A DNA stretch of 64,000 nucleotides from Candidatus Nomurabacteria bacterium (GCA_943356525.1 CALRFG010000005.1:2921-66920), one strand, 5' to 3'. Counted from the stretch's first letter, positions 3,501 through 58,559 are shown. Program-made: numbers and translations. The notes: generated from the letters alone by a model not told the origin.

Positions 3501-3823
3501 AAGATAATACAAAAGCATCTGTTGATGGAGGTAGAAAGCAAGATTCTCTGAATAGAATTAAATTATTAAGTGAATTGTATCCACAAGCAAAAGATTTGTG
3601 TTTAGATATTATAAGATCAATCAAAGATCTGGATGCGTTACCAAATGGTGTTCTTAAGGAAATTGTTGAACTTCGTATTGATAAAACTAATCCAGAAAAA
3701 GCGTATCTTGAACTAAAAGAACTTATCCCAAGTAAATATCTAGAAAGTATATTTGAAACTGCTGATAGAGCAAATGATGATAGTCAACTAATTGTTCTTT
3801 CTGAAGAATTAATTAAAATATGA
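521..3823 (+). CDS. Fusion of an HKD (phospholipase-D family) nuclease domain and an SNF2-family helicase. Likely the restriction/translocase subunit of an RM-like defence module.
   Basis: The N-terminus carries HSKFYILHNK...GSSNLT (HxK(x)4D...GSxN PLD motif). Helicase motif I is ADVVGLGKSIIA, motif II is ILDEAHKHRN (DEAH), and motif III is SNF2-type LSATPFNNDPKDIYALIKLF. The C-lobe reads IIIATDAISEGFNLH...QRVGRINR. The gene overlaps the next gene by ATGA. Confidence 0.8.
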   Translation: MDNMSTSINNIGDNTLSSNLKSILPNCDKIDALVGYFYFSGFKDLHNELADKQIRILVGMDIDKKIIDKVSTLKDLNLDSHTTDTKISSRSGSKDDYIENFSRIFNDTDFFDNDESQKSFEVFLDKIKDGSLQIKKTPQANHSKFYILHNKPEFSTNGITPGIVIEGSSNLTFSGLKGQGEHNRILTEKHYYEEDVKRFNETWADPNNIIITDLDSAESFIKEIKDKIWLYALPDPMLMYYKVLSEYFAVSEIEDMKTPKHITGGKFSDLKYQKDAINLGIDRIKKFGGVIIADVVGLGKSIIASAIAHNLGYKTIIIAPPHLESQWKDYASEFDFKGHIYSTGKIEDALQRHEDDKGKLLIILDEAHKHRNEDTGNYKSLHRLCAGNYVMALSATPFNNDPKDIYALIKLFSTPGQSTIRTVENLSMSFHMLFKRYKAVRRDLRKNSKDESDGSEIKIELHSIADELRKMIEPLIIRRSRLDLEEIDEYREDLKAQGVAFAKVKDPQLLEYDLGEMFDLYVETLEKIAPEDKSTSFIGARYKPASYINEGSKFLEKLIEQDDEDGMSAEEKLQRITQAQSNLARFMRRLLVRRFESSIGAFKLSLKNMIDSSEIMLDWYVNRREVPIFKKGMLPDTEYLDELPDNELDALILNLEEKGLIRIPINELKSDFINDLQHDISILRDIDNAWSNKTTDPKYNFFKQKIIQSLEENSNRKIVVFTEFSDTANYVFEKLKKDGLNRAFKYSSEDASDDNKKIIKQNFDAGLDESKQVNDFDIIIATDAISEGFNLHRAGAIINYDIPYNPTRVIQRVGRINRINRKVFEELYIYNFFPTLTGEKETRTKAISTLKMDLIHTLLGEDTKTLTSEEDLHNYFAKQYNEENNKNESLSWDAPYRNMWLKIKDDKNIMDQISRIPHRSRIARKNKDVDGVVAFAKKGSSYVFAFGKTPETVEIVSPRIALPLFNQVLDSETSSQTTVNFDPIYKMAKDHIFKDNTKASVDGGRKQDSLNRIKLLSELYPQAKDLCLDIIRSIKDLDALPNGVLKEIVELRIDKTNPEKAYLELKELIPSKYLESIFETADRANDDSQLIVLSEELIKI

Positions 3824-6800
3824 AATTAAACGAAAAATACAATCAAACTTATTTTACTGAATTTGTGGCAAATCTTTTACCAGAAGATTTTGTTTTACGT
3901 GAGGAAGATATAATAATTAAAAAAGATAGGTATAAGGAAATAACCAAGGCAAAAGAACTTGGTTTTTGTAAGTCTTTAGATTTACATGTTTTAGAAATGG
4001 ATCATAATCACAACAAAGACCCTAGGGTTATTATTGCTACTGATGCGTTTAAGATATTGGCAGATCATTGGATTAATAAGGCACTAGTTATATTTAAAAA
4101 TAACGATTCAGAAAATTATCGTCTCTCGTACCTAACCATAAATCTTGATTTAAATGATAAAAACAAAATAATTAAAAATTACTCTAATGCCAGAAGATAT
4201 TCATTTTATCTAGGTGTTGGTGCTAAAACAAAAACACCTGAACAACAACTTTTGGGGAAGGGTAAGATAAAAGACCTAGAGGATTTACTTAACAGGTTTT
4301 CTGTTGAGGTAGTTAATAAACAGTTCTATTTAGAAGTTGCTAAGTTTTTCGACGAACTTGTTTCTGTTGATAAAGAAAATTTGGTTACACTTAATCCATT
4401 AAATGTTGGTTTAAACGCTCGAAAAAGTTTTGCTGTAAGACTTATTGGACGTATTATGTTTTGTTGGTTTCTTAAGCAAAAAAAATCTGACAGAGGTCAA
4501 TTAATTCCAGATGAAATACTGTCCTCTAAGGCTGTGTCTGGTAATTATTATCACAACATTTTAGAGCCTTTATTTTTTGGTATTTTAAACACAAGTATTG
4601 ACGCACGTGACATAAGAAGTGAATTATTTGATAATGTTCCTTATTTAAACGGTGGATTATTTAATCCTCAGGCTGATGATTATTATGAGTTAAATCGTGA
4701 TACTTTTGTTTCTAAATATGTAGATATTTTTACTATAAAAGATGATTGGTTTATAAAATTCTTTGAGCTTCTAGAGTTGTATAATTTCACCATTGATGAG
4801 AATACTGTTTTTGATCAAGAATTGTCTGTTGATCCTGAAATGTTGGGTCGTATTTTTGAAAATTTACTTGCTGAAATTAATCCAGAGACAGGTAGTAGTG
4901 AGCGTAAAAGAACAGGTAGTTTTTATACACCAAGGCAGATTGTAGAGTACATGGTTGATCAATCGTTGATTGAATATTTAGAAATAAATACTGGTATAGA
5001 AAATGGGAAAATAGCCGCCCTCGTTAGTTATGATTTAAATGATGATACAGAAAACCCTATTAATGATGAAGAAAAAAAGAAAATTATATATGCTCTTGAA
5101 TCTTTAAAGATATTAGATCCTGCCTGTGGATCTGGTGCTTATCCAATAGGTGTATTACAAAAAATTGTATATATACTTCAACAAATTGATCCAGATTGTA
5201 CCATGTGGTTAGATGAAAAACTTGTGGGTGTGTCGGATTTATATAAACAAAAAATAATCAACGAGGTAAAACAAAATCCTTTTGACTACACTAGAAAATT
5301 AGATGTAATTAAGAATTCTATTTTTGGTGTTGATATTCAACCCATTGCTGTAGATGTGGCTCGTTTAAGATGTTTCCTGACTTTGATTGTAGAATCTGAA
5401 ATTAATGATACAAAACCAAATAGGGGTATAGAACCATTACCAAACTTAGATTTTAAATTTGTGTGTGCTAACACTCTTATATCAGCACCTGAGCAAAGTA
5501 TTGAAGATGAAAACACTCTCTTCGGTGATTTTTTTCAAGAAAAAATGACTTCTGCCATAGATAGATATTTTTCATCATCTGGAGAAAATAAAAGAAGTGC
5601 TAATAATGAAATACATAAATTAATTGATGGAAAAATAGAAGAAAAAATAGGTCATATTGCAAATTTCACTTCACTTGGAGGTATTAAAGAGATTGAAGAG
5701 ATGCTTATAAAGGCTAATAAAAAAGATATAGACAAACATTCAAATATACTTAAATTATGGGCTAGTTATAAAAATATTTTTGAAAATAAACCTGTAGATT
5801 TTTTTGATACTAAATATTTTTTCCCGGGAATTAAAGATGGTTTTGATATAGTTATAGGTAATCCTCCTTATGTTCAAATTCAGAAGTTTTCAGGTACTGA
5901 GGTACAAAAAAATCTCCAAGATCAAAATTATAAAACTTTTGAAAAAACAGGTGACTTGTATGCTTTATTTTATGAGAGGGGTTTAATGTTAACAAAAAAG
6001 GATTATGGATTGCTTTGTTATATTACTTCAAATAAGTGGATGAGATCTGAATACGGAAGATCTCTTCGTCAATATTTTGTTGAACATGATCCTAAGATTC
6101 TTATTGATCTTGGGGGAAATGTTTTTGAATCTGCTACTGTTGATACGAATATTTTATTAATACAAAATAGAAAAAACAGAAAAGAAACAAGCGTGGTTTC
6201 TGTTAAAAGCGATAAGGGTGAATTTGGTACTCAAATAAAAAAAGATTCTATAAATATGTCTTTTTCAAACAACGACGGTTGGTTCATTGGATCTTTGTCA
6301 GAAATAGGTTTGAAAAATAAGATAGAAAAAATAGGAAAAAGACTTAAAGATTGGGATATTAAAATAAATTATGGAATAAAAACAGGTTACAATGAAGCTT
6401 TTGTTATCACAAAAGAAAAAAGAGATGAATTAATAAGTAAAGATTTTAAATCAGCTGAAATTATAAAGCCGATATTAAGAGGTAGAGATATAAAAAGATA
6501 TGCTTATGATTTTAAAGATTTGTATATTATAGCAACTGGTTATGATTTAGATGTGCCAAATATGTACCCAGCTATTTTTAATCATTTAAAACAATTTGAA
6601 CAAAAAGCAAAAAAGAGATGTGATAAGGGTAAGAATTGGTGGAATCTTCGGGCCTGTGTTTACTACGATGATTTTGCAAAAGATAAGGTTGTATGGGCAG
6701 AGACAGATCAAAACCTGAATAGTGTTTTAATTTCTGACGAATTTTATTTACAGAAAACTTGCTTTATGATTACTGGATCCAACTTGAAGTACATAAATGC

Positions 6801-7086
6801 TTTATTAAATTCAAAAATTTCTCAATATAATATTAGATCAATATGCTCTGGTTTAGGAGAAAAGGGTATGAGTTTAACCAAAGAATCAGTATCTAAGTTA
6901 CAAATTCCACCTATCACTAAAGAAAATCAAGATATTATTTCTAATATAGAAGCACTTGCTGGTCAAATCATTGAAGCAAAAAAATCAAATCTAGATTTAA
7001 CCACAAAGCATTTAGAAGCAAAAATTGATGATCTTGTATATAAACTATATGAATTGACTGAAAATGAAATAAAAATTATAGATTAA
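3820..7086 (+). CDS. Eco57I/MmeI/PglX-family (gamma-class) N6-adenine DNA methyltransferase with a C-terminal target-recognition domain. DrmMI/Type IIG-like.
   Basis: SFYTPRQIVEYMVDQ (FYTP motif X) is followed by ILDPACGSGAYP (motif I, FxGxG) and IVIGNPPYVQIQ (motif IV, NPPY). About 330 aa precede the MTase core and a ~380-aa C-terminal region is typical of a TRD. The 4-bp overlap with the upstream helicase implies translational coupling. Confidence 0.8.
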   Translation: MKLNEKYNQTYFTEFVANLLPEDFVLREEDIIIKKDRYKEITKAKELGFCKSLDLHVLEMDHNHNKDPRVIIATDAFKILADHWINKALVIFKNNDSENYRLSYLTINLDLNDKNKIIKNYSNARRYSFYLGVGAKTKTPEQQLLGKGKIKDLEDLLNRFSVEVVNKQFYLEVAKFFDELVSVDKENLVTLNPLNVGLNARKSFAVRLIGRIMFCWFLKQKKSDRGQLIPDEILSSKAVSGNYYHNILEPLFFGILNTSIDARDIRSELFDNVPYLNGGLFNPQADDYYELNRDTFVSKYVDIFTIKDDWFIKFFELLELYNFTIDENTVFDQELSVDPEMLGRIFENLLAEINPETGSSERKRTGSFYTPRQIVEYMVDQSLIEYLEINTGIENGKIAALVSYDLNDDTENPINDEEKKKIIYALESLKILDPACGSGAYPIGVLQKIVYILQQIDPDCTMWLDEKLVGVSDLYKQKIINEVKQNPFDYTRKLDVIKNSIFGVDIQPIAVDVARLRCFLTLIVESEINDTKPNRGIEPLPNLDFKFVCANTLISAPEQSIEDENTLFGDFFQEKMTSAIDRYFSSSGENKRSANNEIHKLIDGKIEEKIGHIANFTSLGGIKEIEEMLIKANKKDIDKHSNILKLWASYKNIFENKPVDFFDTKYFFPGIKDGFDIVIGNPPYVQIQKFSGTEVQKNLQDQNYKTFEKTGDLYALFYERGLMLTKKDYGLLCYITSNKWMRSEYGRSLRQYFVEHDPKILIDLGGNVFESATVDTNILLIQNRKNRKETSVVSVKSDKGEFGTQIKKDSINMSFSNNDGWFIGSLSEIGLKNKIEKIGKRLKDWDIKINYGIKTGYNEAFVITKEKRDELISKDFKSAEIIKPILRGRDIKRYAYDFKDLYIIATGYDLDVPNMYPAIFNHLKQFEQKAKKRCDKGKNWWNLRACVYYDDFAKDKVVWAETDQNLNSVLISDEFYLQKTCFMITGSNLKYINALLNSKISQYNIRSICSGLGEKGMSLTKESVSKLQIPPITKENQDIISNIEALAGQIIEAKKSNLDLTTKHLEAKIDDLVYKLYELTENEIKIID

Positions 7087-7394
7087 CTTTGTTAATAGTG
7101 TGGTGTTGGTAACTTAACTACACAAATCCTTTTTATTAAGCTAAGCTTTAAAAGTACCTAAAAAATTGGTATAATCAAATCACAATTTAACAGTCGACCT
7201 AACCCCTAAAAGCCTTGTGTTTCTAGGATATGGTTGCAAATCCGTCCAAAGTAAAGAACTCCTAGTCAGGGTTCACTTTGGACGGTCATATCTGGAAACA
7301 GGTATGGACACTCCCTACGGGGTTTGTCGACCTGGCTAGGAGCTTTTTACTACCTAGTCAGATCACAATTAATCATAAAAAACCGTCCAAATTT

Positions 7395-32733: not shown

Positions 32734-33043
32734 TAACTTGAAAAAAGCTATTCTTTCTGTGAATGGTTTATTTTTTATTCAGGACTAAAGAAGGTTAGTA
32801 TTAATTGTGTAGACGAAACCAGAGATAAGAATATTCATAAATAAATACAAATCAAAGCTTACTATGTTATTATGTAAGTATAGATGAATTCAAAATCCAC
32901 TCAATTACCCATAGTTTTAAAGGATTTTCATAATGAAATCCAAACTCTTAAAATCGAGCAAAAAGATCTTTTATTTAGAGTAAAAAAATCTATAGATGTA
33001 GCAAAATTGAAAAAGATTAACAGCAAATTAGGCAAGTAATTCT

Positions 33044-36000
33044 ATGTCTGAAAATAGTGAAAAAAAATATATAAAGGTTGAGGATTTTGTCGGAGCTACA
33101 AAACACGAGGTTGGTGATTCTGTAGAACATGCAATTGAAGAGTTGGATACCATACAAGCAAGAAATGAAGAAATTGCATTATTAATAGAAAGTGCCGATA
33201 TTCCCCTTGCTGATAAAGAGGCTTTTAGATCAGAACTTGCAAGTGTAGAAAATAAAACGTTATCCTTTAAAGAGAAATTTTTAATAAGATTAGAAAAAGT
33301 AGCCGAGACTGTGCTTACTCCTATTGCAAAAGGTATTGAAGCATACGGTAGAAATTTTGGAGAAAGTAAAAAAAAGATAGATGGGGTAAATTTTATACTT
33401 GAAAATTTAGTATGTGAAAATAAGGAAGAGTTGTTAGAAGATTTAAGGCAAAAGGTTGAAAAAAATTATTTGTATTCAATTCCGGTTCCAGAATTTCCAC
33501 TTGATAAAAATGGTTTAGAAATAATATCTTATATTAAAAAGAAAGATATCGGGTCTATGTACGATGTAGAGAGTATAATTAAGAAGGTAAATTTTATGCA
33601 CAAGCTGCATAAAAAAAGTGTTTCTTTACAAATGATAGGGTGTTTTGATCTGGATCATGATTTTTACAATAGCGATTCTGTATTAGAAAATAAAGATTTA
33701 ATAGCTAAGCTAATCTTATTGGACAAAACTGATTTCAAGCTTTATCTAAAAGATATTCCAATGTATAAGATAGAGAAATTAGAGCTTGAAAAAATAAATC
33801 TAATTATTCAAAATCCGTTTCTACGTATTTCATTTCACGAATCTTATTATCTAAATGTAGATAAAATAAATAACTATATTACCGAGGAAAATCTTAAAAA
33901 AATCAAGGATTTTATTAGTGGTCCGATGTATCCGAGTAAAAACATTAGTGAAATTTTTACTTTCGTAGAAAAAGTTTTTAATTTACCTAAAGGTGTTCAG
34001 GGTATTTGTGATTTCTTATATCACCGTAATGGTGGACAAATAAATCAGATATTGACTAACTATGAAATTGATATGCGCTACAATATGCTTAAAAACCTAA
34101 AAGAGCAAGAAATAATAATTTTAAACAGGTTGGTCAAAGAGGTTGACGTCTCAATGTGGAAAAAAGACGATATTAAAGAATATTTACAACTTAATGAAAA
34201 TATTTTTGATAGGTGTAAAGAGTTGGATATATATATAGGCAGTTCCTATCGACCTGTCAGTTTGTTTTTGGAAATAAGTAGTATGTCTGATGACGAATTT
34301 GATCTATTTAAGCAAATATACAATAAAACACCAGCAAAAAGAGTAGATCTTGCTTTAAAAACTTTTACTTCAATAAATGAATCGCTAACCTCTGAACGCT
34401 TTAAGGAAGTTATTTCGTTTATTGATAGGATTGGTGAAACACATAACTTAAGATTTTATATAGAAGATAATCGTTCATTAGCAGATCTGGTTTATTTTAT
34501 GGGAGTTGTGGAAGAAGAAAAAGATATTGATCTTCTAGACTTAATAGAAAGCGCCTTCGGAAAGTATACACTGCATAAATGTGCAAGAGATAAGTTTTTA
34601 CTTGATGAGATTTTGGCTGGATTCGTGTATGAAAGGTCGTTTGCTGTTCCGCGAATTATAAATGATCAGAATATGTGTTTACATACATTTCAAAATTTTG
34701 AAAAGGTAAACGGTTATCTAAAACTTAAAAATAGCAAATTTTCAGAACAAGATATTGAGACAATATATTATAATATTTTAAACTCGAATCCTAACATTTT
34801 TTTAACAGAAAATACTTTTCCGTTGACAGTTGAAATGAGAGCTGAAATAACAAGAAGTATTACCGGGATATCATCACCTGAAATTTTGAATAGATTTTAT
34901 TTCTTTAAAAAAGAATATCTTGACCATACTAATAATCAACAAGAATTACTAAACCGTTTATTTGATACGCTTATTGTAACCCAACCAAAAGAACTCTTAG
35001 AATCTAAAGATTTTCCTTTTACCGAGGAACAAATGCGATATGTAGAGATCTTTAAAAGAATTAACGATTCACCATCAAGGGAATTAAAAAATCTTTCTAC
35101 AGAAATAATTCCACTCTTGTTAAAAAACAATACAATAGAATTAATGCATGAGTATGTTTCAAGGATCGAGCATATATTTTTAACTAATAATATACCGATG
35201 GTAGGAAAGCAATATAAGGTTTTTGAAATATTATATGGAGATACACAATTAAAAAATGGGGTATCAAGAAGTAAAGTCGAGTCTTTGAAAAAAATGAATA
35301 ACCCTATTAAGCAACGATTAACAATCTTTAAGGATTTGATGAGGGCTCATATTGCATCAGCCGATAGTAATCTAATGCAATACTTAACTGCACTTAAGGA
35401 AGGTAGAAATGCTTTAGAAAAATTTGAAAGTGACACACCTCTTGAGGAAAATGAAAAGAAAAGTCTGAAGGCATTTATAAAAAAAATAAATATCTTAACA
35501 GGTCATATAGGAAAAGAATCTATTGTAATGGGAGATGATATATCTGATGAAGAAATGGCTCAGGAAATACGAGAACTGAGTACGTCATTGGGGGTTGAGG
35601 AAGGAGGAAGTATAATCCATAAATTTGAGAAATTTTTTCTAAAAGGAATAGGGATAGAAACAATAAATGAAGCAATTGAAATAATGAAGCAACGTAAGAT
35701 TGGGGCACATAATCGAAATGTTGAGTTGTCCATATCAGGAAAAATATCACTACAAAATGGTGATTTAGTAAAAGGTGTATCAAGTAATTATTTTGATACC
35801 TATCTTGATAAAGGTGTCTACGCGCCTGAATTTGTTGGTGCGCAAAGTGTCGGTGCAAAATCTGTAAGTAGATCAAGTGATGGTACACCGTTTGATACTG
35901 ATTTAATAATAATAGAAGATGATAAAACGGATCTAGAAGACAATCTCACTGGGTACGGTGATATAAACCTGATATTAAAAAATAAATCCCAATTTGAACA

Positions 36001-37126
36001 AGACGATTTAGACATATTTAGAACTGGAGTAATCTCAAAAAACCATTATGGTATTCGCACAGGTTTCGGTTCAACTCAGATAGATGCAATCTGTATCAAG
36101 CCTCAAGAAATAAAAGATTCAGGTATAGATAAAATAAAATATTTCATAGCAAAAAAAGGATTTTATATTCCAATATGTAACCTTGATGGAAATATAGTTT
36201 TTACAAAAGAAGATTATGATGAGTATCGAAAAATATTTAAAGGTATAAAAAGATATGAAGGTGGAGAATTAGAGATTAGTCAAGAATGGAAAACGGATAA
36301 GATGTCAGAGGAAATAGATTCTATAACTCAAACAGAAGAAAATATTTCCAATATGGAAATTATCAGAGATAATGTTCAATTAAAAATAAAGAAAATATTG
36401 ACCGATACAGGGGTTCTCATACATAAAGGTGAATTCGATGACAGTCTTCTGGGTGCTATCATTTCAGATACAGGGTCTACGGGTCGTGGATCTGCCCTTG
36501 ATGAAAAGTTTGATTTTGATTTTGTAGTAAAGCTAGATGATACTGATTGGAATAAGGTTCCAGGTATTCTTGAAAAAATAAAAGAAATTTTCCAGGTTAA
36601 AGATCAATATGATGACAATGGAATGATAATGTTTAGATCACAGGAGATAGAAATCGATGGAGTTAAGATGGATATTGATATAGGTTTCAATAAAAAATCA
36701 GATTCTGAGGAGTTTGCAGCACATGATGCGCTTAAGGAAAAATATAATGCAATCGAAAATTCTCAAGGAAAACAGGCATTATTGGATACATTGACAAATA
36801 TCAGGTTTGCAAAGAAAAAACTCAAAGAAGCAGAGTGTTATAAAAAAGGAAATAAAGGCGGTGAACAACAAGGTGGTTTGGGTGGTATTGGGGTTGAGTA
36901 CTGGATTATTCAAAACGGTGGAGATGCAGTGAAGGCATTTAAAAATCTTGCAGAAGCGGCGATTCACGACGGACAAGTTATCCCTTTTGAAGATTTTAAA
37001 AAGTCTTATAAGGTCTTTAGTGCTGGGCAAAATCTACGTGGTTCAGTCAAGGTGGAGAATTTTACATATAATATGTCTGAATCTGGATATCAAAAAATGG
37101 TAGAACTTGCAAAATCATTCTTATAG
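33044..37126 (+). CDS. Giant (1360 aa) hypothetical protein with a C-terminal pol-beta/CD-NTase-like nucleotidyltransferase core.
   Basis: The C-terminal region reads GSTGRGSALDEKFDFDFVV (G[GS]x9-13 D-h-D-h) followed ~60 aa later by MDIDIGF (third acidic residue). The N-terminal ~1100 aa have no recognisable motif. Confidence 0.6.
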   Translation: MSENSEKKYIKVEDFVGATKHEVGDSVEHAIEELDTIQARNEEIALLIESADIPLADKEAFRSELASVENKTLSFKEKFLIRLEKVAETVLTPIAKGIEAYGRNFGESKKKIDGVNFILENLVCENKEELLEDLRQKVEKNYLYSIPVPEFPLDKNGLEIISYIKKKDIGSMYDVESIIKKVNFMHKLHKKSVSLQMIGCFDLDHDFYNSDSVLENKDLIAKLILLDKTDFKLYLKDIPMYKIEKLELEKINLIIQNPFLRISFHESYYLNVDKINNYITEENLKKIKDFISGPMYPSKNISEIFTFVEKVFNLPKGVQGICDFLYHRNGGQINQILTNYEIDMRYNMLKNLKEQEIIILNRLVKEVDVSMWKKDDIKEYLQLNENIFDRCKELDIYIGSSYRPVSLFLEISSMSDDEFDLFKQIYNKTPAKRVDLALKTFTSINESLTSERFKEVISFIDRIGETHNLRFYIEDNRSLADLVYFMGVVEEEKDIDLLDLIESAFGKYTLHKCARDKFLLDEILAGFVYERSFAVPRIINDQNMCLHTFQNFEKVNGYLKLKNSKFSEQDIETIYYNILNSNPNIFLTENTFPLTVEMRAEITRSITGISSPEILNRFYFFKKEYLDHTNNQQELLNRLFDTLIVTQPKELLESKDFPFTEEQMRYVEIFKRINDSPSRELKNLSTEIIPLLLKNNTIELMHEYVSRIEHIFLTNNIPMVGKQYKVFEILYGDTQLKNGVSRSKVESLKKMNNPIKQRLTIFKDLMRAHIASADSNLMQYLTALKEGRNALEKFESDTPLEENEKKSLKAFIKKINILTGHIGKESIVMGDDISDEEMAQEIRELSTSLGVEEGGSIIHKFEKFFLKGIGIETINEAIEIMKQRKIGAHNRNVELSISGKISLQNGDLVKGVSSNYFDTYLDKGVYAPEFVGAQSVGAKSVSRSSDGTPFDTDLIIIEDDKTDLEDNLTGYGDINLILKNKSQFEQDDLDIFRTGVISKNHYGIRTGFGSTQIDAICIKPQEIKDSGIDKIKYFIAKKGFYIPICNLDGNIVFTKEDYDEYRKIFKGIKRYEGGELEISQEWKTDKMSEEIDSITQTEENISNMEIIRDNVQLKIKKILTDTGVLIHKGEFDDSLLGAIISDTGSTGRGSALDEKFDFDFVVKLDDTDWNKVPGILEKIKEIFQVKDQYDDNGMIMFRSQEIEIDGVKMDIDIGFNKKSDSEEFAAHDALKEKYNAIENSQGKQALLDTLTNIRFAKKKLKEAECYKKGNKGGEQQGGLGGIGVEYWIIQNGGDAVKAFKNLAEAAIHDGQVIPFEDFKKSYKVFSAGQNLRGSVKVENFTYNMSESGYQKMVELAKSFL

Positions 37127-40147: not shown

Positions 40148-42739
40148 ATGAAAAAAATAATCATAACAATCATATTCATATTATCTACGAATATATCAGC
40201 TAAAACCATTATCACTGATACTTACTTTAACAATAAAACTATAAATTGGACTGCTGACGGTAGTCCTTATATTATTCAAAAAAAAATAACTTTAGCCTCG
40301 TCTACGTTAAATATAGATAATGCTCAAATCATATTTGAAAACAGCTCTATAAACCTATTCACCAATAGTTTTGTAAATATAAATAACACAGATATATCTG
40401 GAATATCTCCTTCATATGCATTTGCTTTGTTTAACTCTAAGTTTTCACTCAAAAATACAAAGATAAATACCAATAGATTTATTGAATCATATGGAAGCGA
40501 TATAAATATAGATAATCTAAGAAGTCTAAACTCTTATAATAAAGATTTATTTAGTCTTTATGGTGGTTCAAACCTAAATATGACAAACTCTTATATTGAA
40601 AACTATAAAGGTAACGTCTTTGGTATAAATAATGCAAATAAAGTTAATATTCAAAATACTGAGTTTATAAAGAATGAAAGGGTTATAGAGTTATATTATG
40701 CAAGCTCTACTTTGATAAATAAAAACGATTTCGAGCATAACAATATAGCCATAGAATCATATATAAAAGGTAATTTCGAAAATAACTATTTTCAAAAAGA
40801 TAATCCAACTATACACTCATTCAAAGATAGTGCTGAGGAAAATGAAAATAATATATTGGCTGGACCATTTAATATAAATATCTTTTCTAAAGAGAAAAAC
40901 ATTAAAAAATTAGAAAACTGTTGCTCGAATATCCTTTTTCTACCAGGTGTTATGGGTAGTCGTTTATATATGTCAGGCCTTACTCAAAATCAACTTTGGG
41001 AACCAAATAAGAATACTGATGTTAAAAAGTTATATCTTGATGAGTTAGGTAAAAGTATAAATAATATATTCACTAAGGATATTATTGTTAAGACAAATAT
41101 CTTAGGAGGCTTACCGTTTGTTGATAAAGATATATATAAAGATTTTTCAGATTACTTAGAAAAATTAAAAAAAGATAAAATTATAACTGATTATAATGCT
41201 GTTCCGTACGATTGGAGAATGTCAGCCGATTATATATTATCTGAAGGTATAAAAACAAAAGATAAAAATATAGACCTAATAAAAACTATACAAGATTTAC
41301 AAAAAACATCTCGTAATGGAAAAGTTACTATAATCACTCATAGTAATGGGGGACTTGTTGCCAAACAGCTTATCATTGAACTTAAAAAACAACATTTAGA
41401 AAACATTATTGAAAATGTGATATTTGTTGCTATGCCCGAGTATGGCACAGCCCAGGCAATAACAGCACTTATGTTTGGACATCAACAATCTTTGGCAGGT
41501 GGTTTGATCATGCGGTCATCTATTGCTCGGGAGTTGGGAAAAAATATGCCAACAGCCTACACGTTTTTACCTTCAGAAAAATATTACACATATAATCCAT
41601 ACTCCGATAAACTATTACAAGAAACTGTTATCAGAAATTATTCGCGTATAAATCTAACGCTTCAAGAAAAAGCTAAGACTTTACACCAAGAGTTAGACAA
41701 TATTGTGTACCCATCAAACATAAATATTTATCAAATACTCGGTACAGGGATAAACACCATGTCAGATATAAAACTTGATGATAAAAATTTATTTAAAATA
41801 ATACCGCTCTATAATAAAAATGGAGATGGGGTTGTTCAAGACATGTATTCATCACGTTACGGAACTACAACCTTTGTTGATTTAAAAGACACTATATATA
41901 AACATGCCAATATTATGAATAGTGATAGAGTTATATCAAATATAAACAGTATAATAAACCCAATACGGTTTGACCGCACTGACTATGGTCTTGATTATAA
42001 TAAGATAATCAAAAACAATAATTATAAATTATTAAGAATCACCCGGAGCCAAAACGAAGGTTCTCAGTATTTAGCTCCGTTAGATATGGATTTGAGTTTA
42101 GGTATGACAAAGTTAAATCATAATCCAGCCAATGAGTTATATATAAATAAATACAACTCAAATAGTCTAAGTAATTTTGATAAAGTAATAGAAGTTTTGG
42201 ATAATAGCAATAGATTTGAACTATATGATCAAAGTATAAACTATCTATATAGTGATGATTTAGATAAAATATCCATAAACTCAAAAACAAATAACACTTT
42301 AGATCTTAGTATTTTAGAAAATATAGATGGTGAGATTTCAGAATTGGAATATAAAAATATACCTGTATTTAGAAATAGTGAGATGATTTTTGATATTAAT
42401 GAAAACTCTGATGCTTTAAATATAAGTTTACCTCTAACAAAGCAGATGTTAAGTTTTCATAATCAAAAATCTGGTAGCTCTACAGATGAAAAAATTAATA
42501 AAATAGTTAGTGACATAAACTCTTCCAAGATGGAGTTTTACTTAAAGGATAGATATATAAGACGTATAGAAGTATATAGGAAAAATAAAGATGATAAATA
42601 TCTCAAAACCCTAGGAAAAAGAGTTGCTGATGCCATAGATTCTATAGCGAAACTGTCATACAGCCCTGCTCTGAAAGCCCGTTATTCTAAGGTGAAAGAG
42701 GATTATATTTATCTAAAATTATTATTGCTAATATTGTAA
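40148..42739 (+). CDS. Secreted 863-aa protein with beta-helix-like N-terminal repeats and an alpha/beta-hydrolase (lipase/LCAT-PGAP1-like) domain.
   Basis: Signal peptide. LFLPGVMGSRLY and TIITHSNGGLVAKQL (GxSxG nucleophile elbow). Confidence 0.5.
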   Translation: MKKIIITIIFILSTNISAKTIITDTYFNNKTINWTADGSPYIIQKKITLASSTLNIDNAQIIFENSSINLFTNSFVNINNTDISGISPSYAFALFNSKFSLKNTKINTNRFIESYGSDINIDNLRSLNSYNKDLFSLYGGSNLNMTNSYIENYKGNVFGINNANKVNIQNTEFIKNERVIELYYASSTLINKNDFEHNNIAIESYIKGNFENNYFQKDNPTIHSFKDSAEENENNILAGPFNINIFSKEKNIKKLENCCSNILFLPGVMGSRLYMSGLTQNQLWEPNKNTDVKKLYLDELGKSINNIFTKDIIVKTNILGGLPFVDKDIYKDFSDYLEKLKKDKIITDYNAVPYDWRMSADYILSEGIKTKDKNIDLIKTIQDLQKTSRNGKVTIITHSNGGLVAKQLIIELKKQHLENIIENVIFVAMPEYGTAQAITALMFGHQQSLAGGLIMRSSIARELGKNMPTAYTFLPSEKYYTYNPYSDKLLQETVIRNYSRINLTLQEKAKTLHQELDNIVYPSNINIYQILGTGINTMSDIKLDDKNLFKIIPLYNKNGDGVVQDMYSSRYGTTTFVDLKDTIYKHANIMNSDRVISNINSIINPIRFDRTDYGLDYNKIIKNNNYKLLRITRSQNEGSQYLAPLDMDLSLGMTKLNHNPANELYINKYNSNSLSNFDKVIEVLDNSNRFELYDQSINYLYSDDLDKISINSKTNNTLDLSILENIDGEISELEYKNIPVFRNSEMIFDINENSDALNISLPLTKQMLSFHNQKSGSSTDEKINKIVSDINSSKMEFYLKDRYIRRIEVYRKNKDDKYLKTLGKRVADAIDSIAKLSYSPALKARYSKVKEDYIYLKLLLLIL

Positions 42740-46808: not shown

Positions 46809-47071
46809 AGACGACCATACAGTATGATAATAAACCAACGAAAAAAACGGATATAAAGACCAAAGCAATAGCTTAAAGTTTTCATATCCGCTTTTCGTTG
46901 AAAGCGGATTTTCCTTCGCAAATTGACAATTACAAACCTTCGCGTAAACAAATTGTTGAGTAAACAGTTTGGCAATCGGGATTTCTCAGGAAAGCCCCCG
47001 GTTGAAAAATTAGGTAAACGCAGAAGGATAATTAACATACATTTTCACGATTGTGGTATATGTATTTCCTA

Positions 47072-50465
<3,394 letters not shown>

Positions 50466-50591
50466 ATATGTATATCCAATCGTGAAAGTGTATGTTAATT
50501 AAATTGTAATTGAAAATCAAAAGTACGTGAGCTAAGCGAAAGATTTCTTTCTTGAAATCTGAAAGCTTAGCGAGCGTCATCGAATCTTTTG

Positions 50592-50708
50592 TTCTGGTGA
50601 CTCGTTGGAGGGGCCACACCTGATCTCATTCCGAACTCAGAAGTTAAGCCCTCTTAAGGCGATGGTACAAGCTTTACGCAAGGAGAGTAGCTTGTCGCCG
50701 GAACAAAG
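50592..50708 (+). rRNA. rrf: 5S ribosomal RNA.
   Basis: CCACACCTGATCTCATTCCGAACTCAGAAGTTAAGCCC...GCGATGGTAC...GAGAGTAGCTTGTCGCCGGAA. The terminal helix pairs with the 5' end ttctggtgac. Confidence 0.85.
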
Positions 50709-54248: not shown

Positions 54249-57200
54249 ATGAATAAATTAAAACTATTACCAATCATTGCATTATTTGTAATAATTATCA
54301 GTTTAAATGTTCGTGCCGATATATCAAACGGACTCTTAACTCACCTTCCATTTGATGCTTCTGGGGCTACAGGATCACTCGCCGATACAAGTGGAGCTGG
54401 CTATAGTGCAGGAGTCTCAAGTACTAAACCAACTTGGGTTGCTGGAAAGTCTAGTTCACACGCATTGAAGTTCACAGGTGAGAATAATCCACTTACTCTC
54501 GCATCAGAAATTCCGATAAAAAATATTCCTGCGTTATCAGTTGCTATGTGGGTTAAGTTTGATACCTTAAGCTCATCTGATGAACACATTGTTTCAAACT
54601 ACTTAAACTCAGCAAACTTTACCATTGGTATAGTTAGAAATAAAGGCAATATAAAATGTAATGTTCGTACAACATATAATGTGAATGCACAAGCAACGTT
54701 TACAAACGACACTGCTAATTGGCATCATATCGCATGTGTGTATGACGGGTCTAAAGTTACTGTATATATTGACGGCATAGCGGGAAATTCAGTAGCTTTA
54801 ACAGGGAATACGTCTAACGCATTTAAAAATCTTACAATCGGTGGGTCAGGTGCATACTCTATTGATGATTTACGAATATACAATAGAGGTTTGAGTTCTG
54901 GGGATGTTTCTGAACTTGTGACACCTCCTGTTACAACTCCTCCAGTAGTCATACCTCCTGTTGTAACTCCGCCAGCTACAACTCCACCAGTAGTAGCTAC
55001 TCCCATCAGTACTGTAGGTACAGTTGGTGTTGGAAATTCAATAACGCACAAAGTAGCTATGATTGATTTTACATGGCAATTTAATTGCGGAGGGAGAGCG
55101 TGTAAATATGGACAATTCGTAAACGGTGATTATTGGGTTGTGCCAATCGATGACCAAGGAAACAATACTGGAACTGTAACTATTACAAATATTTCTCCAG
55201 TAAGTACTACAGATGTATCAGGAAAGACTGTTTCTCATGGTGCTGAAGTGAATCCAATCGTCGATGGATTTCAGGGGCTTATGCCAATGTATCCGGATCT
55301 CTACAGAGCTTCAAGAAATATTATGCTTCAATTGCCATATACTGCAAATCCTGGAGATTCAATATTTAAATCATATGTCATTACCGCTGTAGGTCCAACC
55401 CTTACAGTACCATATCACCTTGGAGGTGGGGGAGGAACAAAACCTAAGTGCAGACCGCCTGGCTGTGTAGGTTCAAACGATGTGCTTACTATTTTACCAG
55501 CAATTCCACCAAACAACGGAGCCACAGTTTTCCGCCCTCCGTTCTCTGGAACTTGGAAACCATTATTTACTACTGACAAAGTGCGCTTTGAGCGATTGGC
55601 ATCTATCCCTGCTGTAAGTGCAACATTTAAGGGTGGATTCCAGGCAAATGCAGACAGGGCTGTATATATGCAACTACCTGCTATGTATGAGTTGCTTTCT
55701 GCCGGCGACACGTATAGAGATATTGTACCGTTGTATGCTATGGAAGGGTATGCAAGAGATCAGGCAACTGCGTTTGATGGAAGTGTACACTTGACATTAG
55801 GGTCAGAAACAAATACACAAAAGGCTCCTATTGTCTATGCACTGATGCAAAAAGGAATTGATAAATATGCCATGTTTAGAGCAGGGATAGGATTTGGATC
55901 AGGAGCAGGACAAAGATTGGGAAAGAAAGGCCCTATTGCATACTTTGCGGCACTTTACGATGACACTTCAATTTTAAATCAAGTGAGAGCGATTGCAACT
56001 GATCCTAAGTATCGAGGATTTTTCCAAGAAGATACACAAGTAAAAAGAAATAAATTCGGAGTTCCGATTTGGGGTGATTTTGCACCGGAAAGTTACTATT
56101 GGTCAGAATACATGTCAGAGTGGCGAGGCTTTAACGGTTATGTAGGTGGAGCTGTAGGTGGTCGAGGAGATCCGTATGGATATATTGACGGAGGAAGTGG
56201 TAAATCCACTAAATCATATCAAGGTGTTACCTCAGGGCCGTTTGCAATATTTACCTTTAATCAACTTCTAATGCCATGGTATCGATATGCCAACGGTTAT
56301 GATGCATTGATTGAATATATTGATCGAATGAGAGGTAGGAACACTCTAGGAAACGTTGGCGGATGGTATGGTAAGTCAGACCTATGTGCTGGTGTTGATA
56401 CTCGAGAATTGCCAACATGTGACCCATTTAATGAGAGTACATGTAAATATTACAAAAAAACATGGGGTCCTGACCCTGTAAACCCAGGACAATGTCTGTT
56501 ACATAGTGCGAATCCGGCAACTACATTGAACGGAAGGTGGACAAATTTACATGGAGCTAACTCAGATCCTACTGAGGGATTTGGAAATGCTGTAACGAAT
56601 AGTCTTTGGAACTCACTCCGAGATTGTTTAGATCCTGCTCATTCAACTTATGGAACAGGACTATGTACAAGTATGGGGGCTGAAGGACCGGATGGAAACC
56701 CTGCCTTAAATCCTCCAGTCACTACTCCATTTTCTAATTATTTCAATCTTACAGTTGAAAGAATTGGCAATGGAGGAGGGTATGTTCTTGGAAAATATTC
56801 TCCACTAAATTGTGGAATTTTATGTACTATCTCATTTTTTGTTGCAGGAGCACCTAAACTTATTGCGGTTCCTGATGCTGGAAGTGTGTTTAGTGGATGG
56901 AGTGGTACAGGAAGATGTAGAGGGTCCTTAACTGAGTGCTACCCCTCACTTTACAATGACATAACAGTAAAGGCCAACTTCACAAGAGTAGGCGCTGCGG
57001 TTTCTTCTCCAACCATAGACTCTCGACCAATATCATTTATCGAATCAACAAAAGCATGGGGTAATGCAAGTGTTACTTCAATAGGTGGAGGGTTTATTAA
57101 TTCTCGAGGTTTCCAATTTGGGACAACTACTGCATACGGAAGAGCAACAGTTGAAAACGGTTCATTCAACATTGGAAACTTTGGTGCGCCTATAAGAGAT

Positions 57201-58559
57201 TTAGTTTGTAATACTACATACAACGCTCGTCCATATGTAATCAATGCCGGAGGAATAGCATATGGCTCTAACGTTGTGTTTACAACTGCATCTTGTGATG
57301 GAAAAAATCCTGGAACAACAACAGTTCCTCCGGTAACTACAACTCCTATTACAGATAATGATAAAGACGGAGTTGTCGAATCAATCGACTTCTGTCCAGG
57401 AACCCCAGCTGGAATGAAAGAGTTTGTAAACACTCGCGGATGTATTAAACCTAAATTTTCAACATTTGATATTAAACCAGATGATACAAACCTTGACCTC
57501 TCCTCTATCTCATTTCTTGAGCTTGGTAAGACAAATGTAGGTAAGATTAAATGGATCCCTGCTGTACAATTGACTCGAAGTGATGCACGGCTTGATGTAG
57601 ACACTAACCTGACATTTTCAACAAAGAAGATCACACTCAACTCAGCTAATCTTCCAGAACTTAACAAACCTGCACAAATTACATTGTATGGTATTACAGA
57701 GACTAGACCTAAAATCTTGAAAGATGGTTTGGAGTGTACGACTTGTGTGATTAATTCATTTGTAAATGGAATACTGGTGTTCACTGTTACTGGATTTTCA
57801 ACTTATGAAGTAAAAGAAGGAACCGCTCCAGTTGTAATCGTTGTAACAACAACCTCAGAAACTGTACCTGTAACTTCTGCTCCAGCACCAGTTTACAGTG
57901 GTGGAGATGGGAGCTATACCTCTCCTACAAATGCCTCTGTCTCAACACAAAACACACAAACTACAGCAAGCACAGTACCTCAAGTAAACTTCAACTTCAC
58001 CCGAAACCTCACACTAGGCTCAAAAGGAGTTGATGTAAAGGCACTTCAAGTAATCCTAAATAGTCTACAGTTTAAAATCTCAGCAGTAGGTGCAGGATCA
58101 CCAGGCTTAGAGTCAGACTACTTCGGCCCAGCAACCAAAAACTCCTTGGGAAGATATCAGCTATCAAAAAAGATATTCCCAGCTCTAGGATACTTTGGAC
58201 TTCGCACAAGAGCAGTCATTAACAAAGAAACATCACCAACACAAACATCTGCACCCTCCGCTTCTACTACCACTTCTGTTACTACTAGTTTAATAAAAAA
58301 GCCAATACTAAAATTTGGAGACAGTGGCGCAGATGTCAAAGCACTTCGAACCAAACTTCGAAACCTTGGATATTCATCAGCTTATGGAACTGCAGGTGTA
58401 CCGACATCAGCTTCAGTCGAAACAACATTTTTTGGAACAGAGACTTTGACTCAAGTAAAGAAGTTCCAATGTGACAAGCTATCAATCTGTTCAGGGTCTC
58501 CAACAACCAATGGATATGGTACAGTTGGACCAAAGACAATGGCAAGTTTGGAATTGTAA
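54249..58559 (+). CDS. Giant secreted surface protein with a LamG/concanavalin-like N-terminal domain, Pro/Thr linkers and two C-terminal peptidoglycan-binding (PGBD-like) repeats.
   Basis: Signal peptide. Linker PPVTTPPVVIPPVVTPPATTPPVV. C-terminal repeats ...LGSKGVDVKALQVILNSL...FGPATKNSLGRYQ and ...GDSGADVKALRTKLRNLGY...FGTETLTQVKKFQ. Confidence 0.6.
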   Translation: MNKLKLLPIIALFVIIISLNVRADISNGLLTHLPFDASGATGSLADTSGAGYSAGVSSTKPTWVAGKSSSHALKFTGENNPLTLASEIPIKNIPALSVAMWVKFDTLSSSDEHIVSNYLNSANFTIGIVRNKGNIKCNVRTTYNVNAQATFTNDTANWHHIACVYDGSKVTVYIDGIAGNSVALTGNTSNAFKNLTIGGSGAYSIDDLRIYNRGLSSGDVSELVTPPVTTPPVVIPPVVTPPATTPPVVATPISTVGTVGVGNSITHKVAMIDFTWQFNCGGRACKYGQFVNGDYWVVPIDDQGNNTGTVTITNISPVSTTDVSGKTVSHGAEVNPIVDGFQGLMPMYPDLYRASRNIMLQLPYTANPGDSIFKSYVITAVGPTLTVPYHLGGGGGTKPKCRPPGCVGSNDVLTILPAIPPNNGATVFRPPFSGTWKPLFTTDKVRFERLASIPAVSATFKGGFQANADRAVYMQLPAMYELLSAGDTYRDIVPLYAMEGYARDQATAFDGSVHLTLGSETNTQKAPIVYALMQKGIDKYAMFRAGIGFGSGAGQRLGKKGPIAYFAALYDDTSILNQVRAIATDPKYRGFFQEDTQVKRNKFGVPIWGDFAPESYYWSEYMSEWRGFNGYVGGAVGGRGDPYGYIDGGSGKSTKSYQGVTSGPFAIFTFNQLLMPWYRYANGYDALIEYIDRMRGRNTLGNVGGWYGKSDLCAGVDTRELPTCDPFNESTCKYYKKTWGPDPVNPGQCLLHSANPATTLNGRWTNLHGANSDPTEGFGNAVTNSLWNSLRDCLDPAHSTYGTGLCTSMGAEGPDGNPALNPPVTTPFSNYFNLTVERIGNGGGYVLGKYSPLNCGILCTISFFVAGAPKLIAVPDAGSVFSGWSGTGRCRGSLTECYPSLYNDITVKANFTRVGAAVSSPTIDSRPISFIESTKAWGNASVTSIGGGFINSRGFQFGTTTAYGRATVENGSFNIGNFGAPIRDLVCNTTYNARPYVINAGGIAYGSNVVFTTASCDGKNPGTTTVPPVTTTPITDNDKDGVVESIDFCPGTPAGMKEFVNTRGCIKPKFSTFDIKPDDTNLDLSSISFLELGKTNVGKIKWIPAVQLTRSDARLDVDTNLTFSTKKITLNSANLPELNKPAQITLYGITETRPKILKDGLECTTCVINSFVNGILVFTVTGFSTYEVKEGTAPVVIVVTTTSETVPVTSAPAPVYSGGDGSYTSPTNASVSTQNTQTTASTVPQVNFNFTRNLTLGSKGVDVKALQVILNSLQFKISAVGAGSPGLESDYFGPATKNSLGRYQLSKKIFPALGYFGLRTRAVINKETSPTQTSAPSASTTTSVTTSLIKKPILKFGDSGADVKALRTKLRNLGYSSAYGTAGVPTSASVETTFFGTETLTQVKKFQCDKLSICSGSPTTNGYGTVGPKTMASLEL

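Follow-up and report, generated by a model that had tools for sequence, protein, structure and literature searches.

INTRODUCTION

The CCA-adding, poly(A) polymerase (PAP), OAS and cGAS/DncV-like (CD-NTase) enzymes form a structural group of two-lobed, template-independent nucleotidyltransferases (NTases) of the Pol-beta type. Class-I CCA-adding enzymes, such as that of A. fulgidus (PDB entry 1r89), are near-universal proteins of ~440 aa, with a Pol-beta palm of signature GS…DxD…D, a helical neck, and body and tail domains for binding the acceptor/T arm of tRNA. The Cid1-type terminal uridylyltransferases (TUTases) and the non-canonical poly(A) polymerases are eukaryotic; the CD-NTases, SMODS and OAS proteins have a palm with G-S…[DE]-x-[DE]…[DE], a pattern which is superfamily-wide and therefore non-discriminating. 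NTases are also found in toxin-antitoxin pairs, MenA-MenT and AbiEi-AbiEii, where a small gene lies directly upstream of its partner, often overlapping it, and where the distribution is patchy and independent of context. We describe here a two-gene cassette, consisting of a 51-aa and a 1360-aa open reading frame (ORF), found in a stretch of 64,000 nt of DNA (hereafter the window) from Candidatus Nomurabacteria bacterium (GCA_943356525.1, CALRFG010000005.1:2921-66920). The large protein ends with an NTase that is predicted to belong to this structural group.

Bacteria of the candidate phyla radiation (CPR) and uncultured gut Bacilli encode many large 'hypothetical' proteins thought to shape dependence on other cells, and a chemistry has been assigned to almost none of them. 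The cassette belongs to a family which is a concrete and widespread unit, with at least 835 clusters, presence in at least 357 species genomes, two enzyme-like domains and a candidate micro-protein partner. We take it to be a Pol-beta NTase family new to description, fused to a divergent module that is probably ADP-ribosyltransferase (ART)-like. No description of this architecture was found in the literature searched, and Pfam, NCBIfam, PADLOC and PHROGs contain no model of it; it is not categorically new, since it is built from known folds. The catalytic residues that can be named make the family directly testable.

RESULTS AND DISCUSSION

Layout of the large protein

The two ORFs had been pointed out by an initial annotation of the window, and both were confirmed: the small one (32884-33039) and the large one (33044-37126) lie on the + strand, 4 nt apart. 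The exact 1360-aa protein is recorded in independent assemblies, three in all, among them the metagenome-assembled genome (MAG) GCA_943355205.1. It is soluble as judged from its sequence (maximal Kyte-Doolittle hydropathy of 0.9 over a 19-residue window), and no signal peptide or transmembrane segment was found in it. Searching the whole protein against Pfam, NCBIfam, PADLOC and PHROGs gave nothing above threshold; sequence searches of the PDB, for which the queries were the protein itself and three profiles, returned only coiled-coil noise or matches with E > 0.1.

In an alignment of eight relatives, conservation falls mainly within aa ~656-1360, whereas aa 1-655 diverge fast. The relative P0002 is 50% identical in the N-terminal region and 76-79% identical in the C-terminal half; for P0003 these values are 30% and 61-63%. 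The variable region (aa 1-655, nt 33044-35008, + strand), delimited by its identity to relatives and by BLAST, is rich in L, E, I, K and N, is probably helical and contains no domain recognised by Pfam or NCBIfam; BLAST detects it in 31 of 300 family proteins, all from the closest subclade. The initial annotation had given the protein an N-terminal region of ~1100 aa without recognisable domain. This was wrong, for aa 656-1075 are strongly conserved, with 15 residues invariant in 84 sequences at ~30% identity. An AlphaFold2 model of aa 656-1360 (705 aa), computed from an alignment of 83 sequences, was obtained with a mean predicted local distance difference test score (pLDDT) of 86.2 and a predicted template modelling score (pTM) of 0.88; such confidence suggests that this part of the protein is packed as one unit.

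The C-terminal nucleotidyltransferase domain

The NTase domain (aa 1076-1360, nt 36269-37123, + strand), defined from the model, from Foldseek and from conservation, consists of a long helix at its N-terminus, the catalytic palm and, after it, a helical neck. As the initial annotation had noticed, a Gly-Ser loop, a D-x-D and a third acidic residue are present: the GS…DxD motif GSTGRGSALDEKFDFD covers aa 1144-1159 (nt 36473-36520), and KMDIDIG (aa 1208-1214) contains the third Asp, D1212 (nt 36677-36679). They are conserved across 83 relatives at 26-77% identity: G1144, S1145, R1148, D1157 and D1159 never vary, and D1212 hardly does. The neck contains two conserved motifs, NIRFAKKKLKEAECYKK (nt 36797-36847, + strand) and QGGLGGIGVEYWI (nt 36869-36907, + strand), and the conserved block comprises N1252, A1256, K1257, K1261, Y1266, K1267 and the GGLGGxGxExW motif, among others. 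Over 16 to 83 diverse members, the neck motifs AKKxLK…YK…GGLGGxGxExW and the catalytic set are invariant or nearly so. Conservation of both the catalytic and the neck residues indicates that the domain is very probably an active NTase.

The best Foldseek match of the domain in the PDB was the archaeal class-I CCA-adding enzyme 1r89 (E = 3e-4; 9e-4 for another structure of this class, 3ova; ~290 columns aligned), followed by the Cid1 TUTase 4e8f (E = 4e-4, template modelling score [TM] of 0.43-0.48 on the target), which is likewise a two-lobed and template-independent NTase. Next were OAS2 (E = 5e-3) and the CD-NTases CdnD, DncV and CdnG (E = 2-4e-2), and the Pol beta, lambda and mu structures were poorer matches than all of these. 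At the sequence level, the NTP_transf_2 model matched 7 of 16 diverse NTase domains (best E = 1.2e-6), but neither it nor PAP_assoc was found above threshold in the window protein with Pfam; a profile search of PDB sequences with the NTase gave no match. From its model and from these comparisons, the domain is therefore predicted to fall in the CCA/PAP/OAS/CD-NTase structural group, as a Pol-beta NTase with two lobes and no need of a template, but in none of the established families.

Likeness to the class-I CCA-adding enzymes lies in the palm and in the helical neck that follows it. The neck of the A. fulgidus enzyme (RLLKxFLK…Y…GFSGYxxELLI) may parallel RFAKKKLK…YK…GGLGGIGVEYWI of the window protein; there is no significant sequence similarity between these enzymes and the NTase. 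They also differ in that the tRNA-binding body and tail domains are absent from the window protein, since only ~285 aa follow the middle module in the model and the protein ends after the neck helices. Furthermore, the NTase is fused behind 1075 aa of non-NTase sequence, and the family is patchily distributed. Unlike the Cid1-type enzymes, it is not eukaryotic.

The initial annotation had proposed a CD-NTase/Pol-beta core and, from it, a signalling-nucleotide synthase. The first proposal holds in part: the domain is a Pol-beta NTase with CD-NTases and OAS among its nearest structures, and the fold search does return them, but the class-I CCA-adding enzyme and then Cid1 rank higher and nothing is specific to the CD-NTases. 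If the protein were a signalling synthase akin to OAS or to those of the cyclic oligonucleotide-based anti-phage signalling systems (CBASS), a cyclic or linear oligonucleotide would be made once the N-terminal or ART-like region had sensed its cue, and the effector would be encoded elsewhere or be the protein itself. This would fit with the spacing of the catalytic triad, which is similar, with the OAS2, CdnD, DncV and CdnG structural matches, and with the combination of a variable N-terminus and a conserved enzyme, which resembles sensor-effector fusions. It would also fit with matches to the SMODS model for 5 of the 16 domains (best E = 0.028) and to the PADLOC CBASS 'Cyclase' models for 10 of them (E from 2.5e-5 to 1e-2). 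However, the SMODS and Cyclase matches are sub-threshold (13.5-14.9 bits for SMODS PF18144, against a cut-off of 26.5); both cover nothing but the palm of ~80 residues common to all Pol-beta NTases (model positions ~47-125 for Cyclase), and NTP_transf_2 and the class-I CCA and Cid1 structures score equally well or better. The NTase is moreover part of a much larger fusion protein, and no effector gene (Cap, SAVED, TIR, phospholipase or transmembrane protein), whose co-occurrence the initial annotation had put forward as a check, was found in 77 loci plus 8 further relatives. A CD-NTase-like motif alone is no sign of CBASS-type signalling, and we hold a signalling synthase to be quite unlikely; the idea of a sensor-effector fusion of a new type, also put forward by the initial annotation, is a possible one.

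In the Bacilli-type members, the helical lobe after the NTase palm matches HEPN_RiboL-PSP below threshold (aa 597-721 of P0010, E = 7.5e-5; aa 1465-1535 of P0155, E = 3.5e-3, cut-off not reached). These matches may be spurious, or may hint at the origin of the neck domain.

The middle module

Conservation of the middle module (aa 656-1075) equals that of the NTase. In the model (pLDDT of 85.3 for this part), it consists of a helical bundle of 240 aa and of an alpha/beta domain of ~170 aa. The bundle (aa 656-896, nt 35009-35731, + strand) is all-helical and carries the motifs SPSRE (nt 35069-35083, + strand), NNIPMVGK (nt 35186-35209, + strand; NNIPxVGK in the family) and FKDLM (FxDLL in the family); its residues S676, N715, P718, G721, K722 and D764 show no variation or almost none. 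The alpha/beta domain (aa 897-1075, nt 35732-36268, + strand), delimited by Foldseek and by conservation, contains four motifs on the same strand: GDLVKG, which includes K910 (within nt 35756-35779), SDGTPFDTD (nt 35876-35902; SDxTPxDTD in the family), HYGIRTG (nt 36044-36064) and GFYIP (nt 36158-36172). Among the 84 sequences, K910, D946, T948, P949, D953, G972, G1003, R1005, G1039, I1042 and P1043 are invariant, and D907, D951, T952, H1001 and T1006 nearly so.

When the middle module alone was compared to the PDB with Foldseek, ART-fold enzymes made up 8 of the 11 top matches, and the other three had a root-mean-square deviation (rmsd) above 17 Å. The top compact match was Tpt1 (7yw4; E = 0.29, probability 0.99, TM of 0.68 on the target, rmsd of 4.8 Å); DarTG/DarT (E = 0.6-1.4) and CteC (E = 1.6-1.8) were also matched. 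Compact matches in the viral library included DUF3626 (0.14), a family which includes SopF, itself an ART, as well as a PARP-like protein of an iridovirus (1.5) and a phage DarT (1.2, TM of 0.59). In a by-eye reading of the model, the strands and helices of aa 897-1075 succeed one another as in the C-lobe of KptA, a likeness shared with DarT, and hhKG-x(3)-Yh-x(2)-Ih-x-NG, the motif of the family, aligns with LYHGT-x(3)-Fh-x(2)-I-x(3)-GL of KptA. From the predicted structure, the alpha/beta domain probably has an ART-like fold.

Several results weigh against this assignment, and with it against the activity proposed below. It is drawn solely from a predicted structure, at Foldseek E-values of 0.3-1.5. 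A Pfam scan of 26 copies of the domain at E ≤ 10 retrieved no ART family, and hhalign comparisons with E. coli KptA and with an 11-member KptA profile were not significant (probability of 1-2%; 1.3% for the profile). The catalytic signatures of ARTs (H-Y-E, R-S-E and the R-H-R-R of Tpt1) are absent, a Lys (K910) being found at the place expected for the His; for want of these signatures, the domain belongs to no known ART clade. In favour of the assignment, the one segment aligned by hhalign in both comparisons was GDLVKG…YL..IL.NG on KptA P..LYHGT…FL..I…GL, which is the canonical beta1-alpha1 NAD-binding element of ARTs, with the invariant Lys910 in place of His, i.e. at the beta1 position of KptA H105. 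The KptA invariants R21, H22, R69 and R125 have no equivalents. The domain also departs from Tpt1/KptA and DarT in its acidic SDxTPxDTD cluster, its HYGIRTG motif and the 240-aa bundle that precedes it. If it is active, with a site made of Lys, Asp, His and Arg, the ART superfamily would be extended.

Two other readings of the motifs were rejected. NNIPxVGK could suggest a P-loop, but the model places it in the helical bundle and not in a Rossmann-like sheet; DTD could suggest the DxD of HAD-like enzymes, but it begins a strand, whereas in HAD enzymes this motif ends beta1. A search with the ART-like domain alone returned short fragments only and no further architectures. In P0008 (L008 9568-13278 / L009), the middle module is kept and the NTase is replaced by an unrelated C-terminus of ~200 aa with an H…HD motif; an HD domain was considered there and dropped, as neither Pfam nor PDB searches confirmed it. 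The gene of P0008 adjoins relaxase, TrwB-like ATPase and serine-recombinase/resolvase genes.

Family size, architecture and distribution

The word-indexed homologue search under-reported the family, giving 8 matches where HMMER, run exhaustively with the C-terminal half as profile, gave 1300. The latter are cluster representatives with E ≤ 1e-3; 835 of them have E ≤ 1e-30, hence our count of at least 835 clusters at 50% identity. The profile, of ~710 positions, matches as one continuous stretch in the 150 matches listed and, among the matches listed, the module is nearly always located at the extreme C-terminus of proteins of 700 to 6100 aa. A few members, of 714-732 aa, consist of little beyond the ~710-residue unit; in the others the N-terminal parts differ and are unrelated from subclade to subclade. 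'Hypothetical protein' is the source name of every member that has one, and precomputed Pfam domains are recorded for no member. There are giant members: P0095 (6114 aa), P0115 (4932 aa), P0096 (3323 aa) and P0028 (3317 aa). Transglutaminase-core domains are found far upstream of the module in P0115 (6e-10) and P0096 (4e-4); the module is internal rather than C-terminal in P0095 and P0115.

Among the 185,579 GTDB species genomes, at least 357 loci encode relatives; the count is a minimum, as the two search patterns miss some members, including the window's own sequence. To judge from the record titles, these genomes belong to Patescibacteria/CPR (Uhr-, Sacchari-, Peri-, Pacei-, Magasanik-, Vogel- and Komeilibacteria) or are MAGs of uncultured gut 'Bacilli' or 'Tenericutes'; the few that bear other taxon labels may be binning or labelling errors. 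One MAG holds two copies. The gene of P0007 (L007 1261-5355) contains 41 in-frame TGA codons that coincide with conserved glycines, which points to a lineage where UGA codes for Gly (code 25) and means that the database entry, where it is read as Trp, is mistranslated.

The small partner gene

The ORF which the initial annotation had noted just upstream of the large gene turned out to be a real gene. Identity of its 51-aa product is 63% in locus L004 and 43% in L005, in step with the divergence of the large protein, and homologous ORFs of 51-62 aa lie immediately upstream of the large gene in at least 10 further loci. Homologues of 54-61 aa abut or overlap the start of the large gene in L012, L019, L030, L032 and L043. 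A hidden Markov model (HMM) built from 8 copies recovered non-seed copies in L018 (5e-11) and L027 (3e-6), and further ones in L100 (3e-9), L101 (1e-6) and L102 (1e-4), each 1-7 nt upstream. The small ORF was directly upstream in every locus checked, mostly 1-7 nt away or overlapping the start (gaps of -16 to +7 nt for L012, L019, L030, L032, L043, L100, L101 and L102). Its product, of pattern ...E(Q/K)xDLLxxxxxxIxxxKLKKI(N/K/R)xxL, looks helical, has a basic C-terminus and contains no recognisable DNA-binding domain. Sequence conservation argues that it is a conserved partner of the large protein within a subset of CPR, in genomic contexts that are unrelated. The small ORF is kept where the N-termini of the large proteins are no longer detectably similar; if its product binds the large protein, it is therefore more likely to do so through the conserved module.

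This arrangement is like that of MenAT and AbiE in that a small gene, adjacent or overlapping, is co-inherited with its partner (here in the CPR subset only). It is unlike them in that the NTase protein is 10 times larger and that no match to DUF1814/AbiEii or MenT was obtained with Pfam, PADLOC or the PDB fold search. The layout, reminiscent of type II toxin-antitoxin genes, raises the question of a protein-modifying effector or toxin, where the NTase would AMPylate or nucleotidylylate, and the ART-like domain ADP-ribosylate, proteins of a host or of the cell itself, with the small protein as antidote or chaperone. The presence of the protein-targeting CteC and of DUF3626 (the SopF family) among the ART-fold matches, the transglutaminase-core domains of giant members, and the reduced genomes of the taxa concerned (CPR and gut Bacilli lineages that are likely host-dependent) go in the same direction. 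But nucleic acids, not proteins, are the substrates of the best ART-fold matches, and the NTase group matched (CCA/Cid1/OAS) is one of RNA or nucleotide enzymes, different from GlnE/DrrA or Fic AMPylators. In addition, there is no signal peptide, transmembrane segment or known secretion-associated domain, and secretion-system genes are not among the neighbours. On balance we consider such an effector unlikely.

Genomic context

In MAG GCA_943355205.1 the cassette is preceded by nitroreductase, HxlR, thioredoxin and DsbD-like genes and followed by RluD-like, L19, TruB and pilin genes. The rluD-like gene starts 24 nt after the large ORF, rplS and truB come next, and no terminator was detected in between by a scan which, like that for promoters, performed at this locus no better than on shuffled sequence. 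The same order, from nitroreductase through the small and large genes to RluD-L19-TruB, is found in two close relatives, of 64% and 46% identity. At 41-58% module identity, the gene is found in wholly different contexts: between ABC transporter and DoxX genes, between HTH plus recombinase genes and a NUDIX gene, or (L101 4838-9221) within a string of purine genes (purF, purN, cassette, purD, purE, purM, purC, purB-like), where it seems to have been inserted into an operon. Clustering of the 477 neighbouring genes of 77 GTDB loci gave 437 clusters, none of them common to more than 5 loci, so that no conserved neighbour was identified there besides the small ORF. Without a recurring neighbour, there is no CBASS-like operon.

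The setting of the window locus is an argument for a housekeeping enzyme that would process or repair the ends of RNA or tRNA, would be expressed along with rluD, rplS and truB, and would combine Tpt1-like handling of a 2'- or 5'-phosphate with CCA- or TUTase-like 3' addition; indeed, Tpt1 and the class-I CCA-adding enzyme, the top structural matches of the two domains, both act on tRNA. Conserved housekeeping synteny was also what the initial annotation had singled out as speaking against a signalling role, but it is confined to the closest relatives and has gone at 41-58% module identity. The patchy distribution (at least 357 of 185,579 species), the fast-evolving N-termini and the paralogs of some genomes argue against a housekeeping gene. 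The protein also lacks several parts: its NTase is without the tRNA-binding body and tail, and the R-H-R-R tetrad and the N-terminal RNA lobe of Tpt1 are both absent. A housekeeping role is thus, in our opinion, very unlikely.

Proposed activity

For both domains, the structures found nearest are those of enzymes working on nucleic-acid ends or on nucleotides; the most economical proposal is therefore a bifunctional enzyme for the modification of nucleotides or of the ends of RNA or DNA. We tentatively favour an accessory two-gene cassette that encodes such an enzyme. The substrates, chemistry and role of the small protein that we infer are as follows. The functional unit would be aa 656-1360, where a divergent ART-fold domain, buttressed by the helical bundle, is fused to an intact NTase; the lineage-specific aa 1-655 would target or regulate it. 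With Mg2+ and an NTP, the NTase would extend a 3'-OH, be it that of a nucleotide or of an RNA end, by one or several nucleotides. On the same substrate, the ART-like domain would bind, or transfer, a ligand of the NAD/ADP-ribose type or one that bears a phosphate. The small protein would serve as stoichiometric regulator or inhibitor, and the role of the whole would be in conflict or accessory functions, not in core housekeeping. If the two domains do cooperate, they would constitute a new pathway of nucleic-acid or nucleotide modification.

A more specific version, itself unlikely, is that of a novel two-component conflict system, restricted to bacteria that are ultra-small or have reduced genomes. 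The micro-protein would restrain the large enzyme, in which the ART-fold domain, with a new K/D/D/H/R site, and the NTase act in tandem, and the hypervariable N-terminus would be used for sensing or targeting. The tandem domains could build or attach a hybrid modification, NAD-derived and nucleotidyl, for example an RNA end capped with an ADP-ribosyl or nucleotidyl group or a new ADP-ribose-nucleotide signal.

Besides the sequence comparisons of the ART-like domain given above, observations on the small gene and on the mobility of the cassette go against the proposal of an accessory modifying cassette. The small ORF was found in only ~7 of ~38 distant CPR loci and, with the HMM, was not found in the Bacilli loci. 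The family is also unlike polyvalent proteins and polymorphic toxins: tblastn against 50,697 phage and 72,556 plasmid records revealed no homologue, PHROGs gave no match to it, the window locus is chromosomal and P0008 alone is next to relaxase, TrwB and resolvase genes. The GC content of the window is ~30% and the composition is even over the cassette locus; this native composition, together with the position 24 nt ahead of rluD, rplS and truB without detected terminator, suggests that in this lineage the cassette behaves as a vertically inherited chromosomal gene.

Other features of the window

A second copy of the cassette within the window was considered and rejected. Two other large ORFs are present on the + strand, one of 863 aa (40148-42739) for which only weak matches are recorded (PGAP1/DUF7379) and one of 1436 aa (54249-58559). 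A match to 23S rRNA at 47067-50466 extends over 3400 nt, for a model of 2925 nt, and includes a match to a group I intron (49960-50163, 65.5 bits). The 5S rRNA follows at 50593-50703; this 23S-5S pair is unlinked, 16S rRNA being detected nowhere in the window. Together with the low GC content, these rRNA genes suggest an organism of the CPR/Patescibacteria type. Finally, a match to the LOOT small RNA (RF03000) was found at 7196-7324 on the + strand, with 70.9 bits for a gathering score of 46.4, just 3' of two tandem ORFs of ~1100 aa (521-3823 and 3820-7086).

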